From NCBI GenBank assembly GCA_963681965.1, contig OY820579.1, positions 1,536,001 through 1,600,000 of the forward strand: a stretch of 64,000 nucleotides of DNA, in the 5' to 3' direction. Of the stretch, positions 4,873 to 62,663 are shown piece by piece; the stretch's first letter is position 1; each line of letters begins with the position of its first letter. The stretch comes from a bacterium (GTDB lineage Bacteria; Electryoneota; JAOADG01). The notes beneath the pieces were generated by a model. The model worked only from the letters and a program-made list of their open reading frames with translations, was not told the DNA's origin and searched no databases. Both the position numbers and the translations under genes were made by a program.

Positions 4873-5399
4873 GCACATTGTGTTGGCACTTTGTGGTGGT
4901 ACATTGTGGTGGCGCAGGCCTCCGATCCTGCGTTTTGTTATCTTTTTTGTCTTTCTGCCCAACTCCGATTGGGCATTTTCAATCTTTCCGCAGTACTTCC
5001 CAACTCCGATTGGGAGAATCCCTTCTTTTCCGTAGGTCAGAACTTGTTCTGACCACCGTTTGTTTCTTGTATTCTGTAGTAGGGGCGCCTCCCCGCGGGC
5101 GCCCATCTTTTTTTTATCTTTTCCTAATCCCCATCTCTACCACCCAACACCTATTTTTGATTTGTCGTTGCGAGGAACGACACGAAGCGTCGGACGTGGC
5201 TATCTTGCTTTTGGTAGGGGCGGTTCGCGAACCGCCCGTGTCTGATCTAGATAAACGATCGTAATCGGATTCACACTTAAAATAATACTGTTATATCCCG
5301 AACAAATAATTAAATTTGTGCTACCTTCAGGCGATACGGGCGGTTCGCGAACCGCCCCTACCAAAAAATATGCGGGCGGGCGTGGGAGCCCGCCCCTAC
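4873..5399. repeat. Intergenic cluster of REP/RPE-like palindromic elements
   Basis: GTGGTGGCGCAGGCCTCCGATCCTGCG (4906-4932); CCCAACTCCGATTGGG twice (~4958, ~4999); GTAGGTCAGAACTTGTTCTGACC (5032-5054); GTAGGGGCGCCTCCCCGCGGGCGCCC (5079-5104); TGTCGTTGCGAGGAACG...GCTATCT (~5163-5205); GTAGGGGCGGTTCGCGAACCGCCC (5214-5237) with an inverted copy (5338-5361); GGGCGGGCGTGGGAGCCCGCCCCTAC (5374-5399); 13-bp tandem unit x3 (4873-4911). Confidence 0.85.
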
Positions 5400-5412
5400 T
5401 TCACAATATGAA

Positions 5413-7299
5413 TTACTTCAACAGGACGATCTTCTGTGTCTTCGCAAACGCACCCGCCTGCAATTGCACAAAATAGGTTCCACTGGCTAATCGCGAACCA
5501 TCGAGCCGCACGCGATACGATCCGGCACGCTGCTCACGCTGCACCAGCGTCGAGACTTCACGTCCGGTGAGGTCGTAGAGACGAAGATCGACGCGAGACA
5601 AGGACGGGAGGGTGTAGGAAAGAGTGGTGGTGGCGTTGAAGGGGTTCGGATAATTCTTAACTAGAAGTGTGGAATTTGGGTGAAGTGAAGACTCCTGAAC
5701 CGAAGTAGTATCGATAGTGAATTGGGTGATGAAGCAGTCATATTGACCATTACTCGATGTATCAAAACATGATGATGAAATTGGGAAATTAGCACTTGAT
5801 GTTAAGCCAATGGCGCATATTTTACTGATTGATATGCAACAAATATCCTCTCCGCCATCGTCGCTCGATCCTCCAAGGAATGTACTATAAAAATGATTGG
5901 GATTATCTAATGAAATACGAACGACAAAACAGTCATTTGAACCTCCACTATAAGACTGTTGCAACGCGTTCATTGTTGTCGGAAAATTTGTGCTAGAAGT
6001 TGTTCCAGTAACAATAATTTCATAAGAATTACGAGCAACTGCCATACCAATATCGTTATCAGTGCCACCAAAAAATGAACTATATAATAGATGAGACAAA
6101 TTATTATTTATAACAGTAACAAAACAATCATAATTTCCATTTTGGGTTGTATCGAATGCATTTTCAGTATGGGGATAATCACTACTTGCAGTAACACCGA
6201 CAGCGATAATGATACTATCCTGCGACAATGCTATATCATGAATTCTATCCCCACCGGAACCACCGATATAAGTACTCTTCATTAAAATGCTACCATCGTG
6301 ACTCACTCGTGATATGAAGGCATCTACTCCTCCATGAAAAGATGAATCGAATGCATCGCTTGAGCACGGAAAATCAGAGCTGTTTGTGTAACCAGCGAAG
6401 ACTATCGATTGATCTAACCGAAGTTGAATTATCGAATTACTTACTTCATCATATGAGCCACCGAAATATGTACTGAATAACAAAGCAGAACGATTCATAG
6501 ATAACTTTGTGATGATACAATCGTAACCACCATTCGTTATCGGATTATAGGTGCCGGTAGTAGTAGGATAATCAAGACTTAATGTGCTTCCACATATGCT
6601 ACAGCTACTATCCGCTTCATTCGCGATAATAGAATATCCTTCATCTACGTACGAACCTCCGATGAAACTACTGTAAACAAGCTGCGTTCCGGTAGGATTT
6701 ATTTTTAGTACAAAGCAATCATCAGTTCGATATCCGGAATGCGAACGGCAATAAGCATTCGTTGTCGTAGGAAAGTTGTCACTTTCAGTGGAACCGGTCA
6801 CATAGATACAATTCTGTGAATCAATTGTCAATCCATTGCTGAAATCATTGAATACACCACCGAGATAAGTACTGAATTGCAGGAGTGACAAGGTTGAATC
6901 CAACTCGGAAATGATACAGTCCGATAATCCGGCATTCATCCGTTCGATCGTTCCCGGAGTAGTAGGATAGTCAAATCCACTGGATGAACCTGCAATGACG
7001 ACCGATCCCGTACTGGTAACTCCAAGTGCTAATGCTTCGTCGTTACCCGTACCACCCACAAACGTCGAATAGATCTGTGGATCGATCCGCAGCGTCTGCG
7101 ATTTATCATACCCATTCGGTAAATCGATTGCGAAGACATTCTCAGCCACGATTGTGAATTGTGCTGTGACATCGTTTCCATGAGTGCCATTCGTAGTTGT
7201 TTGATATGCTCCCGGAATCGACATCCGGAGTTCGCCGAGGGAGGTGGGAAGCGAGAGTTCATTCGATAATCGGAGGTCGGTGCTTCCAATCCTTCGCAC
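5413..7299 (-). CDS. C-terminal intact part: SBBP beta-propeller repeats plus sorting domain (fragment of the 5413-9511 gene)
   Basis: About seven (Y/F)ST(Y/F)xGGxxxD...G.T.S.(D/N)(F/Y)PTT repeats; YPNPFNATT tail. Confidence 0.8.
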   Translation of the reverse strand: MRRIGSTDLRLSNELSLPTSLGELRMSIPGAYQTTTNGTHGNDVTAQFTIVAENVFAIDLPNGYDKSQTLRIDPQIYSTFVGGTGNDEALALGVTSTGSVVIAGSSSGFDYPTTPGTIERMNAGLSDCIISELDSTLSLLQFSTYLGGVFNDFSNGLTIDSQNCIYVTGSTESDNFPTTTNAYCRSHSGYRTDDCFVLKINPTGTQLVYSSFIGGSYVDEGYSIIANEADSSCSICGSTLSLDYPTTTGTYNPITNGGYDCIITKLSMNRSALLFSTYFGGSYDEVSNSIIQLRLDQSIVFAGYTNSSDFPCSSDAFDSSFHGGVDAFISRVSHDGSILMKSTYIGGSGGDRIHDIALSQDSIIIAVGVTASSDYPHTENAFDTTQNGNYDCFVTVINNNLSHLLYSSFFGGTDNDIGMAVARNSYEIIVTGTTSSTNFPTTMNALQQSYSGGSNDCFVVRISLDNPNHFYSTFLGGSSDDGGEDICCISISKICAIGLTSSANFPISSSCFDTSSNGQYDCFITQFTIDTTSVQESSLHPNSTLLVKNYPNPFNATTTLSYTLPSLSRVDLRLYDLTGREVSTLVQREQRAGSYRVRLDGSRLASGTYFVQLQAGAFAKTQKIVLLK

Positions 7300-7531
7300 A
7301 CCATCTGGATTTGCTTCGGATCGGCACCGGGATGCGCGACGAAATCGAATTCGAGATGACCTTTGCTCTCATACCATTCGACATCGATTCCATTCCACAC
7401 CTCGTGATACACAATGCGTGTAAAGTTGCGGCAATCCGGTGCCCACTTCGAGGAATCATTCCCGAGGAAATAATTGTTGTGCCATGATAATTCACCTTGT
7501 GCATTGATCCATTTTGCGGAGGCGTATTTCC

Positions 7532-8103
7532 GTAGGTCGGAATTTATTCCGACATCCTCTTGTGTCGTGCATTTATCCGTAGGGGCGTATGGCATACGCC
7601 CTAATCTTGTATCTTGAATCCTGATTTTGTCTTTGCGAGGAATGAACGTAGGAACGTGCGAAGCACTTCCGAAGTGGAATGACGAAGCAACCCCGAAGGG
7701 CTCACCGAAGGTAATCTCCTCCTGTGTCTTTGATTCATTTAAAGAGTAGATTGCTTCGTCACTTCGCTGCGGCTTTCCGCCTACGGCGGACGATCCTTCG
7801 CTGCGTTCCTCGCAACGACAAGTGAGAGCATCTTGATCGGATAGGGGCGAATGCGATTGCCTTCGGCGAGCACTTTGTGGTTCGCCCCTACGTTCGCAGG
7901 CTCGGAGGTCTGCGCCACCAACAGAAGCGACGAATTTGAATTTGATGGCGTGCGATTTTAAAGGGAATTTTCCGGACACAAGAGGATCGCAGGCTCGGAG
8001 GCCTGCGCCACCAACAGAATAGGAGTTGGGTGGTAGGGATTGGGTGTTGGGAAAAGATGAAAAAAGTGGATTGCGACAGGCGCCATTCGGCGTCCTCGCA
8101 ATG
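7532..8103. repeat. Run of palindromic elements inside the reading frame of the SBBP gene
   Basis: GTAGGTCGGAATTTATTCCGAC (7532-7553); GTAGGGGCGTATGGCATACGCCC (7579-7601); TGTCTTTGCGAGG...GACGAAGCAACC...AATCTC (7628-7718); AGATTGCTTCGTC...TCCTCGCAACGACA (7748-7820); TAGGGGCGAA...TTCGCCCCTAC (7842-7891); CGCAGGCTCGGAGG(T/C)CTGCGCCACCAACA twice (7895-7923, 7988-8016); GGATTGCGAC...CCTCGCAATG (~8068-8103). Confidence 0.85.
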
Positions 8104-9166
8104 GGCATAAACGCAAAAATGTGTGCTGGGATCGCTACTTAGGTGTCATTTGAAAGTACCATTTGAAGTAATTGAATCGTTTCTGTTCTTTGAGTCCGCG
8201 GTGGTTCCGATACTTCGCTTTCAATCGCGAAAAGTATCCTTCCAACGCATTGGTTGACGTTGGTATGGTTGGTTCGTCGAGATAATGGAACATATCCGGG
8301 ATCGCCTTTAACAGCATACTTCTGGCACATTTCAGGTCGCTTGCGATCCAACCGCCAGTCGGTGCCGCGACCGCTTTGCCATAGCGCTTTTCCCATTGTT
8401 GTGTTTTTTTTATAAAGCTGTCGCGTTTGGCTTTAGTATCGATCTCAACGACCGTCGTAAACAGTTCCGCTAGTTTCCTGGCATCGGTTCTTTTAGGATT
8501 GCGACGACACCACCGTAATCCCTGACGTTGGATGTGTACAAGGCAACGCTGCACCTTGATCTGCGGCCATAATTCGCGCAGAATCCGTATTACATGCGGG
8601 TTTCCGTCGACAGTGCAACTGATCGGGTTCAGGCCGCGTGCGATAAGAGGTTGCAAGAAGCGTCGAACCTGGTCGGCAACGTTTTCTTTTACATTGTAAG
8701 AACCGTCGACGATCGTCGTCGACGCGCCATCCATCAAAGCGACGATCGATGCGCTCCGTGTCAGAAACGTCCCGTCGATCAATAGATGACGGTGATGCGA
8801 AAGCGAACCGAAATCGTCCGGCGGTGGCTCCGACAGCCTTTGTTGGATCGTGTTCCATAACGAGCGTGGACTGCAGCCGCTTTGGCAGCAGAGTTGACGG
8901 ATCGAATATCCTTCGGCGATCCAAAGCTGAAACCAGTCGGGAGATCGACGCTCATGGCGGAATGAATGCCGACAAGTACGACAAAACCAGCGTTGACGAC
9001 CGTTACTGTAATGACCGTTTTTTTAGATCCGTGCAGAGGCAAATTGGACAATGTCGAAGAGCCATGAAAGTGCACCTAAGTGATTTACGTTAGCAAATGG
9101 TTCTTATAATAGCAAAGAAAATCTTGAGTTACTAGCGATCTCAGCACACATTTTTGCGTTTATGCT
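8104..9166 (-). mobile_element. IS256-family-like insertion sequence (Zn-ribbon variant), about 1.06 kb
   Basis: 33-bp TIRs GCATAAACGCAAAAATGTGTGCTG(G/A)GATCGCTA (8105-8137 / 9133-9165, 1 mismatch); flanking direct repeat (CT)CGCAATG at 8095-8103 and 9165-9173; exact ends uncertain by 1-2 nt. Confidence 0.88.
8135..9065 (-). CDS. IS256-like (mutator) transposase, split by a frameshift at an A7 run
   Basis: ATG 9065 MALRHCPICLCTDLK; shift at 9018-9024; NGHYSNGRQRWFCRTCRHSF...LLIDGTF...TVDG...QRCLVH...STNALEGYFSRLK...HRG. Confidence 0.8.
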
Positions 9167-9190
9167 CGCAATGACAGAATTAAAGGACAC

Positions 9191-9258
9191 GGGCGGGCAT
9201 GGGAGCCCGCCCCTACTGGAAAAAGGATCGACGGGCGGGCATGGGAGCCCGCCCCTAC
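9191..9258 (-). repeat. Two identical GTAG-REP-like palindromes, in frame in the SBBP gene
   Basis: GTAGGGGCGGGCTCCCATGCCCGCCC on the minus strand at 9191-9216 and 9233-9258, each translated as SRGGLPCPPV; nearly identical to the intergenic copy at 5374-5399. Confidence 0.9.
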
Positions 9259-9753
9259 TAGCGTCTATCGTTTTTGAGGAATCAATTACGTTCGTGACGA
9301 GGGTGACACCATCGCGCTCAATAAACCAAGTGAAACCGTCGGGCCGCACCTCGCATTTATACACCACGGCGGAATCCCACTGCCCCTTGTTCTCGGTAAA
9401 CTGAAACGGGTGCGGTTATCGCGTGGATTGCACACTCACCGCTTGTACGGTAAGAAAACGACCAAATAAGAGAATCATCGTTAAGCAAACGACGAGGAAA
9501 TTTCGATTCATGTGCTGTGATCTAATCGTCATTGCCGCTCCGGCACAGTTCTAAAACATCGATTTGTGTGATCATACCGAATAATCGTAAAGATAATGCT
9601 GATATTTGATTAATCAAACGAATATTGCCGGTATTGGTAAATTAATCGTTGAAAACATCGAATAATCTGCCCAAAAATCCCCGATCGACCCAATCCTACT
9701 ATGAGGGTTTGTTGCGAGCGTACTATATTCAATGAAATTTGAATAGGTGAATT

Positions 9754-15582: not shown

Positions 15583-15618
15583 ACATAATAAATCGTTTGA
15601 TATAAATGCAATATTTTG

Positions 15619-15865
15619 TAGATTACCGCCATCTGAAAGTCGATCACGGCAAACAATTTGTGAAAGGTCGTGTTCACATCAATGGTCTCGAAGGGTTCTG
15701 GAGCTGGGCAAAGGAACAGTTGATGAAACACCACGGCGTGTCGAAAAAGACTTTTCCGCTGTATCTCAAAGAGCTTGAGTTCAGGTAAAATAATCGCGAT
15801 CAGGATATCTTCAAAATGATCGTAATATAACTGTCAACTATTGTGCCAAACCACCACTAATTACC
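15619..15865 (+). mobile_element. IS1595-family transposase 3' remnant
   Basis: YRHLKVDHGKQFVKGRVHINGLEGFWSWAK..LMKHHGVSK..FPLYLKELEFR*NNR is the IS1595/ISXO2-like C-terminus with internal stops; probable right end ...CACTAATTACC. Confidence 0.8.
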
Positions 15866-56526: not shown

Positions 56527-56595
56527 TGTCGTTGCGAGGAACGAAGTGTAGTAACATGCGAAGCATTTACGAAACGTAGAGACGATGCAATCTCC
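56527..56595 (+). repeat. RPE-like palindromic element (TGTCGTTGCGAGG...GCAATCT family)
   Basis: Same ends as the copies at ~5163, 7628 and 7748; internal C(A/G)TGCGAAGCA core shared with 7628-7718. Confidence 0.75.
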
Positions 56596-62547: not shown

Positions 62548-62663
62548 ATAGTATTTCTTGATAATAAGTTGTTATCGGTAGTAGGGGCGGACCCCCGCGT
62601 CCGCCCGCAGGTCAGGCGATCCTTGACACCGAATCATGACAACTTATTTTCAAGAAACACTAT
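62548..62663. mobile_element. 116-bp MITE-like element carrying a GTAG-REP palindrome
   Basis: TIRs ATAGTATTTCTTGATAATAAGTTGT (62548-62572) / ACAACTTATTTTCAAGAAACACTAT (62639-62663), 23/25 complementary; internal GTAGGGGCGGACCCCCGCGTCCGCCC (62581-62606). Confidence 0.7.

Follow-up and report, generated by a model that had tools for sequence, protein, structure and literature searches.

How does a gene for a secreted protein come to hold a long run of palindromic repeats that can still be read in one frame? The question is raised by a locus in the 64,000-nucleotide stretch of bacterial DNA analyzed here (the window), where a first-pass annotation had described about ten palindromic elements of several families, stacked in frame inside one secreted-protein gene. 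We count 11 repeat modules in that gene, spread over 7533-9259 on the minus strand. Our analysis makes it likely that the locus is a dead member of a secreted-protein family in which stacks of the genome's REP-type hairpins are read in frame in three loops of a DUF7948 domain.

The window gene is a pseudogene carrying a stack of repeats

The window gene belongs to the DUF7948 family and lies on the minus strand, with its ATG at 9511 and the end of its last frame segment at 5413; all of its coding features and repeat modules are on that strand. Its translation begins with the start codon and the signal-peptide coding segment (31 codons, 9419..9511), and the paralogs have the same hydrophobic N-terminal leader. 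An in-frame TAA follows at codon 32 (9416..9418), the first pseudogenizing lesion, where 24 of the 24 other paralogs have Leu. Core block 1 of DUF7948 (FTENKGQW ... VIDSS, 9260..9415) has 25 close copies at 80-92% identity by tblastn, and the Pfam DUF7948 model matches the paralogs. Further along are core block 2 (LKSHAIKFKFV, 7929..7961), a predicted beta-strand between insert sites 1 and 2 (strand 75-85 of the model described below), and core block 3 (WHNNYFLGND … MVCEGLEAP, 7278..7532), with 24 close copies at 87-93% identity by tblastn. At the site 3 junction (7275..7283), pairwise alignment with the closest paralog reveals the third lesion, in which 79 nt are missing and the frame is shifted; in that paralog the missing segment is the site-3 hairpin-pair module. 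The remainder of the gene (5413..7274) continues in another frame, with Pfam matches to the end of DUF7948 (positions 146-213), the SBBP beta-propeller, and the T9SS C-terminal sorting domain (Por_Secre_tail).

The stop-free frame that had been proposed to run from FTENKGQW is indeed open through the stack, but it starts right after the TAA at 9416-9418 and breaks near 7275-7283. With the TAA at codon 32, an insertion sequence (IS), and the out-of-frame 79-nt gap near 7280, the window copy is a pseudogene, a status that the first-pass annotation had overlooked. Short-read contigs covering the TAA region (9377-9600) and the frameshift region (7277-7358) each show 0 differences.

Module limits were set by hand from the open reading frame (ORF) listing and the hairpin coordinates, and those of modules other than hairpins are accurate to a few bases. 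In a 14-mer census, the sequences that make up 7527-8103 and 9166-9257 each recurred 7-96 times beyond the gene family, and those of the conserved coding blocks recurred zero times beyond that family. Together with the hairpin coordinates, this census places at the head of site 1 two GGGCGGGC-stem hairpins (9233-9254 and 9191-9212, with a 12-nt spacer; 9188..9259 overall), from a family with 42 perfect-stem copies, 26 of which are intergenic. Next comes a GTCATTGCGAGG-type element that the IS has split into a left part (9166..9187) and a right part (8061..8103); the unsplit form occurs in intact paralogs at genome positions 25601 and 2086485. Site 1 ends, by the same census, with a low-copy module (8016-8060) and a CGCAGGC-stem hairpin (~7989-8015) that has 40-65 copies outside the family, and the haplotype of this stretch (7989..8060) is also found in two intact paralogs. 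Census and hairpin coordinates delimit six successive modules in the site 2 stack (7533..7922): a CGCAGGC hairpin (~7896-7922), a long GGGGCGAA hairpin (7842-7890, in a segment at 7839-7895), an element of 78 nt (7743-7820), a composite of 141 nt (7602-7742), a GGGCGTAT hairpin (7583-7601, in a segment at 7578-7601), and a GTCGGAAT hairpin (7536-7553, in a segment at 7533-7556). Modules of this stack also occur in intact paralogs. The same modules are present there in the same order and frame, so the stack is older than the lesions of the window copy; among the features of the stack, only the IS is a lesion particular to that copy.

The IS (8104..9165, the second lesion) is 1062 bp long and, by sequence comparison, IS256-like, with ~33-bp inverted ends and a transposase gene on the minus strand. 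Its target duplication is 8 bp, at 8096-8103 and 9166-9173; elements of the IS256 family encode a Mutator-type DDE transposase, end in terminal inverted repeats, and duplicate 8-9 bp. The transposase scores 30.3 bits against Pfam Transposase_mut (cut-off 21) and falls below the cut-off for two NCBIfam models, IS1249 (126 bits; cut-off 300) and the IS256 Zn-variant (107 bits; cut-off 150). The first-pass annotation had joined the frames by removing the IS with one copy of its direct repeat, and the arithmetic agrees: deleting 1070 nt (the 1062-bp IS and one 8-bp duplication) leaves the two coding blocks in a single frame. Both IS junctions are bridged by short-read contigs. The genome has three copies of this IS at 99.9-100% identity, each of which interrupts a GTCATTGCGAGG-type repeat at one and the same point and is bordered by the same 7-8-bp duplication.

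The same element families had also been noted between genes of the window, at 4906-5399, 56527, and 62581, and we recovered all three occurrences. An unstranded intergenic stack lies 3' of the gene (4906..5399), with hairpins at 5035, 5218, 5338, and 5374 (5035-5395 in total); an element of the 7743-7820 type occupies 56527-56595, and further copies lie at 62585-62606.

The elements are REP-type hairpins found chiefly between genes

GTAG-type REPs are palindromes of about 20-40 bp with a GTAG head at one end. The sequences inspected, which cover part of the families, are short palindromes with GTAGG or its complement CCTAC beside 8-10-bp stems. A genome-wide census restricted to perfect 8-bp stems, with genes taken from a crude home-made caller, counted 592 copies in 17 stem families. 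In this coding-versus-intergenic count, which had been proposed at first pass, the copies are chiefly intergenic (433/592); another 126 lie in loci of the DUF7948 family, 29 in other predicted genes (most of them no more than a few tens of codons from the ORF 5' end), and 4 on gene edges. We preferred this census to counts of high-copy 12-mers, which also picked up coding sequence of paralogs, T9SS tails, and copies of ISs. The elements are GTAG-type REP hairpins, present in high copy and chiefly extragenic, along with some longer composites. The earlier premise that GTAG-REPs normally lie outside genes is correct in general, but published cases of GTAG REPs within genes exist, as the portion of PMC3733652 considered here documents.

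Two genes for REP-associated tyrosine transposases (RAYTs) flanked by such hairpins, a feature the first-pass annotation had named as worth seeking, are present in the genome. One (529654-530124) scores 94.3 bits against NF047646 (cut-off 80) and has GTAGGTCAGAAC hairpins (GGTCAGAA stem) on both sides. The other (526636-527121) scores 78.9 bits, just below the cut-off of 80, and has GTCGGAAT hairpins on one side. For the GGGCGG-stem families, no RAYT gene of their own was found in the genome. Insert junctions are unclean, with 9-24 nt of the host loop replaced, and show no target duplications; by association with the hairpins, the RAYTs probably mobilize them.

Single elements have 3-5 of their 6 frames open, and some purely intergenic arrays contain open frames of 200-326 aa. 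For arrays outside the family, the mean number of open frames (of 6) is 0.73 at lengths of 150-300 nt, and 0/3 arrays longer than 300 nt had one. The open frame through the window stack is by itself weak evidence, and the case for in-frame inserts depends on 19 intact paralogs.

Intact paralogs contain the same elements in frame in varying combinations

The genome holds 25 close paralogs, the window copy included, that combine DUF7948, an SBBP propeller, and a T9SS tail. In nineteen the frame is unbroken along the whole protein, signal peptide and tail included (844-1018 aa); the other six are dead, three of them through lesions at insert sites. The possibility raised at first pass that intact paralogs might lack such inserts does not hold: all 19 carry them, each with its own selection from the common set of elements, and read through 2-5 perfect hairpins each in addition to longer modules. 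Up to ~160 residues are inserted between the first and third core blocks. Pfam scores in the paralogs are 139-156 bits for DUF7948 (cut-off 27), 37-41 for Por_Secre_tail (27), and 29-36 for SBBP (20.5), with no SBBP match reported by Pfam for the least-inserted paralog. The DUF7948 match is a single stretch in that paralog and is divided into 2-3 stretches in the inserted ones. Such genes are easily misannotated, because domain matches are split and short-read assemblies are broken. A Sec signal peptide and a type-IX secretion tail mark the proteins of this family, on sequence features, as secreted.

The expectation that insert sites would be common to the paralogs and their content variable, with the frame preserved, agrees with the alignment. 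Blocks A and C of that alignment lie 151-625 nt apart and are mutually in frame in 21 of the 25 paralogs, or in 22 if the window copy is counted without its IS. Site-1 regions fall into 10 distinct length classes of 123-294 nt, every one a multiple of 3. In the core, identity between paralogs is 0.90 at codon positions 1 and 2 and 0.62 at position 3, and the block upstream of the inserts likewise has conserved amino acids with diverged third positions. This pattern argues that the DUF7948 domain is translated as protein, and the inserts would be translated with it.

Inserts occupy three predicted loops of DUF7948

Every insert falls in one of three places of the DUF7948 domain. In an AlphaFold model of the least-inserted domain (pLDDT 80, pTM 0.80), these sites correspond to loops 52-74, 86-107, and 181-193. 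In the model of a heavily inserted paralog, the core strands have pLDDT values of 80-98 and the inserts (residues 55-134, 146-265, and 339-375) values of ~28-63. The three sites are thus predicted to be loops between beta-strands, outside the core of the fold. The intact ORFs contain 62 perfect-stem hairpins, all of them 50-337 aa past the start of block A, and the perfect-stem census counts zero hairpins of these families in the propeller and tail of those ORFs. Paralogs, census, and models together support the first-pass suggestion that permissive loops act as a landing pad where repeats accumulate in frame. The site-3 module of this genome has 1 intergenic copy among 32, which means that it is no dispersed repeat; it could be a native loop, or else an insert that became fixed long ago. 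A Foldseek search of the PDB with the domain model returned no match at E <= 0.001, and our literature search found no paper naming DUF7948.

Insert modules are nearly identical and shared in patches

Compared module by module, third-position identity of the inserts was 0.95-1.00 for the majority of modules, with three whose limits are loosely defined at 0.82-0.86; the corresponding values for the core blocks were 0.61-0.72. Averaging all insert columns of a MAFFT alignment is misleading, because non-homologous inserts become aligned together. By these comparisons the inserts look young or homogenized, and their near-identity could alternatively reflect selection on the hairpins themselves.

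Nucleotide identity of the N-terminal regions is 75-92% in nearly all pairs, regardless of propeller identity (49-90%), and these regions contain patches at 99-100% identity. Paralogs 2007609 and 4032076, for instance, share an identical 147-nt site-1 region and have propellers that are 56% identical, and propellers at 80-90% nucleotide identity nonetheless go with very different insert sets. This sharing of haplotypes suggests that short tracts have been converted from one paralog to another. Sharing among paralogs looks mostly like descent or conversion of a limited set of insertion events, and there may have been no more than one or two dozen independent insertions in this genome. Recent conversion of the whole domain was considered as the cause of the high N-terminal identity and rejected: identity at four-fold sites is 0.56, compared with 0.46 in the propeller. 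Amino acid constraint combined with patchy conversion fits these values better.

Other Calditrichota genomes fill the same loops with their own repeats

Three other Calditrichota genomes have dispersed repeats of their own in the same loops of the domain. In G003, from another genus, all three sites hold stacks built from elements of that genome, reaching 244 aa at site 3; one of these elements has 36 copies genome-wide versus 0 for a control pattern. The site-3 insert of G014, from another family, consists of a repeat that matches its genome at about 100 places, and the site-3 insert of G001 matches 49 places, many of the matches lying at contig ends. Counting the genome of the window, these loops have been colonized by different, lineage-specific repeats in four genomes of two families.

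How the stacks may have formed

We propose that mainly intergenic elements, probably moved by the genome's RAYTs, occasionally landed in the DUF7948 loops, and that later elements would have landed in or beside earlier ones, as in the intergenic clusters. Short-tract gene conversion among the paralogs would then have shuffled the stacks, and purifying selection acting on the other parts of the domain would have retained frame-preserving variants only. Other variants would survive as pseudogenes, such as the window copy and two paralogs broken within their stacks. We infer that the inserts have been near neutral and that nesting is the cause of the stacking. The neutral account leaves the near-exclusive concentration in one domain unexplained, which hints at targeting or positive selection: with loop tolerance as the sole filter, inserts would be expected in other genes too.

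This concentration, with 62 hairpins in intact paralogs versus a handful in genes elsewhere, is also what lends some appeal to a selective explanation, in which hairpins were recruited as new loop peptides and conversion among the ~25 paralogs diversifies exposed loops under positive or diversifying selection. The filling of the same loops by lineage-specific repeats in four genomes of two families, the very different insert sets beside propellers that are 80-90% identical, and the predicted T9SS secretion of the proteins would all suit it. Nevertheless, the inserts are predicted to be disordered, the peptides they encode are constrained by the DNA palindrome rather than by protein sequence, with variation located in the hairpin loops, and the DUF7948 model found no structural match at the Foldseek threshold given above. 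The six dead paralogs of 25, with three insert-site lesions among them, fit a cost as well as a benefit. We hold it unlikely that such selection shaped the stacks, and we are just as doubtful of its wider form, that REP hairpins were co-opted as interchangeable loop cassettes, shuffled by conversion and kept by selection across at least two Calditrichota families. If true, it would amount to transposon-fed, recombination-driven variation of protein surfaces.

Three further explanations were weighed. The real proteins might start 3' of the inserts, leaving the stacks as 5' untranslated leaders; the inserts do lie within the first third of the ORFs, and misannotated starts lie behind many 5'-terminal "intragenic" REPs in the portion of PMC3733652 drawn on here. 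An export signal peptide upstream of all inserts, the conserved amino acids and diverged third positions of core blocks 1 and 2, the shared frame of these blocks with block 3, and the single DUF7948 fold that the blocks are predicted to form jointly make this very improbable. Hardly credible is the view that inserts accumulated only after pseudogenization and that the open frame is due to chance. The window copy has its TAA, IS, and frameshift, the elements are stop-poor, with 3-5 of 6 frames open, and some intergenic arrays stay open for 200-326 aa; against this, modules, their order, and their frame all agree with those of intact paralogs, 19 paralogs read through their stacks, and arrays outside the family average 0.73 of 6 frames open at 150-300 nt, with 0/3 above 300 nt. 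Least probable of all is an assembly artifact that joined repeats into coding regions. Repeats do break short-read assemblies, as the many G001 matches at contig ends illustrate, but contigs from the runs of two studies, perhaps including the source sample, match the IS junctions, the TAA, and the frameshift with 0 differences, the same pattern recurs in four separately assembled genomes, and a mis-join would not leave 19 frames open.

Relation to known palindromic elements

In-frame palindromic inserts, a classic curiosity of Rickettsia and of a small number of other genomes, are usually seen as scattered single events. In the present genome, most intragenic hairpins are absorbed by a single domain in a single family of secreted paralogs, with several families stacked. 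Ogata and Claverie are said to have placed inserts of Rickettsia palindromic elements (RPEs) on protein surfaces. In the part of PMC3733652 consulted, RPEs appear as short palindromic mobile elements in ORFs that keep the frame and add an extra peptide, in proteins thought to be functional. The likeness of the elements described here to RPEs is one of behavior, in that they lie wholly inside an intact in-frame ORF and in a predicted loop. An RPE-bearing gene mostly has a single copy, and such genes are numerous and unrelated, whereas here several unrelated families form stacks in ~20 paralogs, always in three fixed loops of a single domain, and the stacks are shuffled between paralogs.

GTAG/CGTC REPs with RAYTs are mostly extragenic, with a minority inside ORFs as singles, dimers, or groups, and intragenic REP clusters encode 43-82 aa (Di Nocera, De Gregorio, and Rocco 2013, PMC3733652, in the sections used here); the stacks described here reach ~160 aa, and 244 aa in G003. 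The hosts of intragenic REPs in those sections are varied, with many genes of DNA repair and replication, and include no paralogous secreted family with shared hot spots. High-copy hairpins that are clustered and in inverted pairs, and single-copy Y1 transposase genes flanked by hairpins of their own, also recall the REPIN-RAYT and BIME systems of PMC3116915, to the extent that these are covered in the excerpt considered. Those systems are described as extragenic, while 62/592 perfect-stem copies here are in the 19 intact ORFs and 126 in the 25 loci. A literature search on intragenic REP/RAYT elements in secreted paralogs or RPE surface-loop hot spots returned nothing matching, and in the sections considered of the Caldithrix abyssi genome paper the one such element described is an intergenic palindrome of 18 nt. 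Both REPs within genes and the RPEs of Rickettsia have precedents; what is new is the scale, the stacking of multiple families, and the recurrent use of the same loops.

The family offers a system for asking how much foreign, DNA-constrained peptide a fold tolerates, whether elements of the REP type favor insertion next to existing ones, and whether mobile hairpins and gene conversion together generate diversity of bacterial protein surfaces.

The IS in the window has a parallel of its own. Copies of ISPpu9 in Pseudomonas putida are inserted into REPs (PMC8450116, in the portion considered), and the IS described here similarly targets a repeat, at the same GTCATTGCGAGG-type position in three copies. 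It differs from ISPpu9 in being IS256-like and in that the repeat it targeted in the window lies within a gene.

The window copy and its repeat stack

The host gene is encoded on the minus strand, from an ATG at 9511 to the end of its last reading frame at 5413. The window copy of this DUF7948 gene is a pseudogene, broken by three lesions on that strand: an in-frame TAA (9416-9418) directly after the 31-codon signal peptide, where all 24 other close paralogs encode Leu; a 1,062-bp IS256-like element (8104-9165) whose 8-bp duplication occupies 8096-8103 and 9166-9173; and, in pairwise comparison with the closest paralog, an absence of 79 nt near 7275-7283 that shifts the frame. These features are very unlikely to be products of misassembly, an alternative raised in the first-pass annotation, as contigs from short-read runs of two studies, which may include the sample that yielded the genome, showed no differences at the IS junctions, the TAA region, or the frameshift region.

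The first-pass annotation had described a stack of palindromic elements within this gene. We confirmed this observation, counting 11 repeat modules, five of which are perfect hairpins with 8- to 10-bp stems. In a 14-mer census, positions 7527-8103 and 9166-9257 consisted of sequence with 7 to 96 additional copies beyond this gene family; for the conserved coding blocks, there were none. Intergenic copies of the same families are present in the window at 5035-5395, 56527-56595, and 62585-62606, as had been proposed. The proposed frame join also holds arithmetically: taking out 1,070 nt (the IS and one copy of its duplication) places core blocks 1 and 3 in register. Taken singly, however, the open frame through the window stack proves little. 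Single elements leave three to five of the six frames open, and some intergenic arrays contain open frames of 200 to 326 aa. Among arrays outside the family, those of 150 to 300 nt had a mean of 0.73 of six frames open, and none of the three longer than 300 nt had an open frame. By our reading of the sequences, it is the paralogs, not the frame of the window copy, that decide the case.

The IS256-like element has three copies in the genome that are 99.9 to 100% identical (window 8096-9173, duplications included; genome 3767879-3768940; genome 3320431-3321492). All three interrupt a GTCATTGCGAGG-type repeat at the identical point and carry the same 7- to 8-bp duplication, (T/C)CGCAATG; the element appears to target this repeat family. 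At window positions ∼9020-9075, adjoining a run of seven A, the N-terminal zinc-finger part of the transposase lies in a frame other than the rest; this may reflect programmed frameshifting or, alternatively, a defect common to the near-identical copies. From its translation, a 60-aa open reading frame at 15606-15788 gave the impression of a transposase C-terminal fragment.

Intact paralogs carry inserts at three predicted loops of one domain

A tblastn search of the organism's own 4.24-Mb single-contig genome with the conserved blocks as queries recovered 25 close copies, 80 to 93% identical across those blocks, and three distant ones. Nineteen of the close copies are uninterrupted from signal peptide to type IX secretion tail (844 to 1,018 aa). 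Core blocks A and C are separated by 151 to 625 nt. This spacing keeps the frame in 21 of the 25; it is out of frame in three, including the window copy owing to its IS, and block C is absent from one. Two further dead paralogs carry frameshifts within their site-2 stacks.

Alignments revealed that the paralogs owe their extra length to the modules seen in the window, variously combined. These modules occupy the two places previously noted, after ...VIDSS (site 1) and ...KFKFV (site 2), and also a third, after ...MVCEGLEAP (site 3). Insert sites are thus shared while content differs, and the site-1 region falls into 10 length classes of 123 to 294 nt, every one a multiple of three. All 19 intact paralogs carry inserts, contrary to the possibility that intact copies would lack them. 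Nor did the inserts arrive after pseudogenization: the window stack matches haplotypes of intact paralogs and therefore predates the lesions.

Host proteins matched the Pfam models DUF7948, SBBP, and T9SS sorting domain, with the DUF7948 match forming one stretch in the least-inserted paralog and two or three in inserted ones. When the least-inserted domain was modeled with AlphaFold (pLDDT 80, pTM 0.80), the three sites mapped to loops between strands (residues 52-74, 86-107, and 181-193). A heavily inserted paralog retained core pLDDT values of 80 to 98, with the inserts modeled as low-confidence excursions. Foldseek with the domain model found no solved relative. The earlier suggestion that permissive loops act as a landing pad is supported. 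The domain is under strong amino acid constraint: core identity at codon positions 1 and 2 is 0.90, versus 0.62 at position 3, the block upstream of all inserts included. This constraint on the upstream block, together with the signal peptide there, counts against a downstream translation start.

Distribution of hairpins and RAYT-like genes

A genome census limited to perfect 8-bp stems identified 17 hairpin families with 592 copies, many elements bearing a GTAG head. By our crude gene caller, 433 are intergenic, 126 belong to the 25 paralog loci, 29 fall in predicted genes elsewhere, and 4 are at gene edges. Most of the 29 are no more than a few dozen codons from the 5′ end of the open reading frame, so that the true start is probably downstream of them. 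Within the 19 intact open reading frames, all 62 hairpins lie 50 to 337 aa past the start of block A, and the propeller and tail contain none of the census families. Two of the three distant paralogs also have a hairpin inside the DUF7948 domain. The site-3 hairpin pair is nearly private to the family (1 intergenic among 32 copies).

The search for RAYT genes flanked by such elements was also productive: two Y1 transposase genes, 2.5 kb apart and outside the window, matched a REP-associated tyrosine transposase model (cutoff, 80 bits), each being flanked by a different hairpin family. L001 (genome 529654-530124) scored 94.3 bits, with GGTCAGAA hairpins as its neighbors, and L002 (genome 526636-527121) scored 78.9 bits, with GTCGGAAT hairpins beside it. 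The pair follows, at a distance of ∼6 kb downstream, a paralog whose conserved block begins at genome 520613. Elsewhere outside the window, 12 GGTCAGAA-family hairpins form a regular array within 1 kb (genome 2281496-2282499), and four GGGAGGGC hairpins with 84-nt spacing lie in a 310-aa open frame (genome 345430-346359).

History of the inserts

Third-position identity among paralogs is 0.95 to 1.00 in most insert modules and 0.82 to 0.86 in three that were defined with wildcards, versus 0.61 to 0.72 in the flanking core blocks, suggesting that the inserts are younger than the paralogs, have been homogenized, or are constrained as DNA. Over the N-terminal ∼250 codons (signal peptide and DUF7948), nearly all pairs of the 19 intact paralogs share 75 to 92% DNA identity, whereas propeller identity varies from 49 to 90% without bearing on it. 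N-terminal patches reach 99 to 100% (as in block 3 when the paralogs at genome 1889413 and 1275902 are compared), and N-terminal modules may have been swapped between different propellers. Whole site-1 haplotypes, host loop sequence included, are common to paralogs with ∼56% identical propellers, quite different insert sets occur on propellers 80 to 90% identical, and four-fold-site identity is 0.56 in the N-terminal core versus 0.46 in the propeller. Together, these patterns fit a limited number of insertion events into the DUF7948 loops, with later elements nested in or beside earlier ones (an 18-nt piece lies within a hairpin stem), which short-tract gene conversion would then have propagated and shuffled against a background of protein-level constraint. 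Insert junctions are not clean, and no target duplications were seen at the paralog junctions.

We favor the reading that the inserts are merely tolerated, which is probable. That selection retained them to diversify the protein surface seems doubtful.

In the portions considered here, Di Nocera and colleagues (2013; PMC3733652) place GTAG and CGTC REPs mostly outside genes, with some inside open reading frames of varied genes and clusters encoding 43 to 82 aa; they also recall the in-frame RPEs of Rickettsia. Intragenic REPs and in-frame RPEs are therefore already known. What sets the present case apart is that inserts concentrate in three loops of one domain, that several element families are stacked there, that stacks appear to have been shuffled among ∼25 paralogs, and that the same loops recur filled with lineage-specific repeats. 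A literature search, which did not extend to Additional file 3 of PMC3733652, found no publication on DUF7948 and none describing secreted paralogs that share REP hot spots.

Relatives

Bacteroidota homologues in the alignment are of ordinary length. In the same genus, G001 has a 37-aa site-3 insert with 49 matching places, and in another family the 30-aa site-3 insert of G014 is a repeat with ∼100 matches in that genome. Paralogs in G003, from another genus of the same family, carry stacks of that genome's elements at these three sites (up to 244 aa, reached at site 3); their open frames span 863 to 1,118 aa. One G003 element has 36 copies genome-wide, versus 0 for a control pattern. Among 10 copies examined beyond that DUF7948 gene, nine lie in open frames of 67 to 196 aa. 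The tenth, a GTAGGGGCGGAC hairpin at locus L136 (G003:C60; locus 1500-1526), lies within a 613-aa open frame that could represent a further gene with an in-frame insertion.
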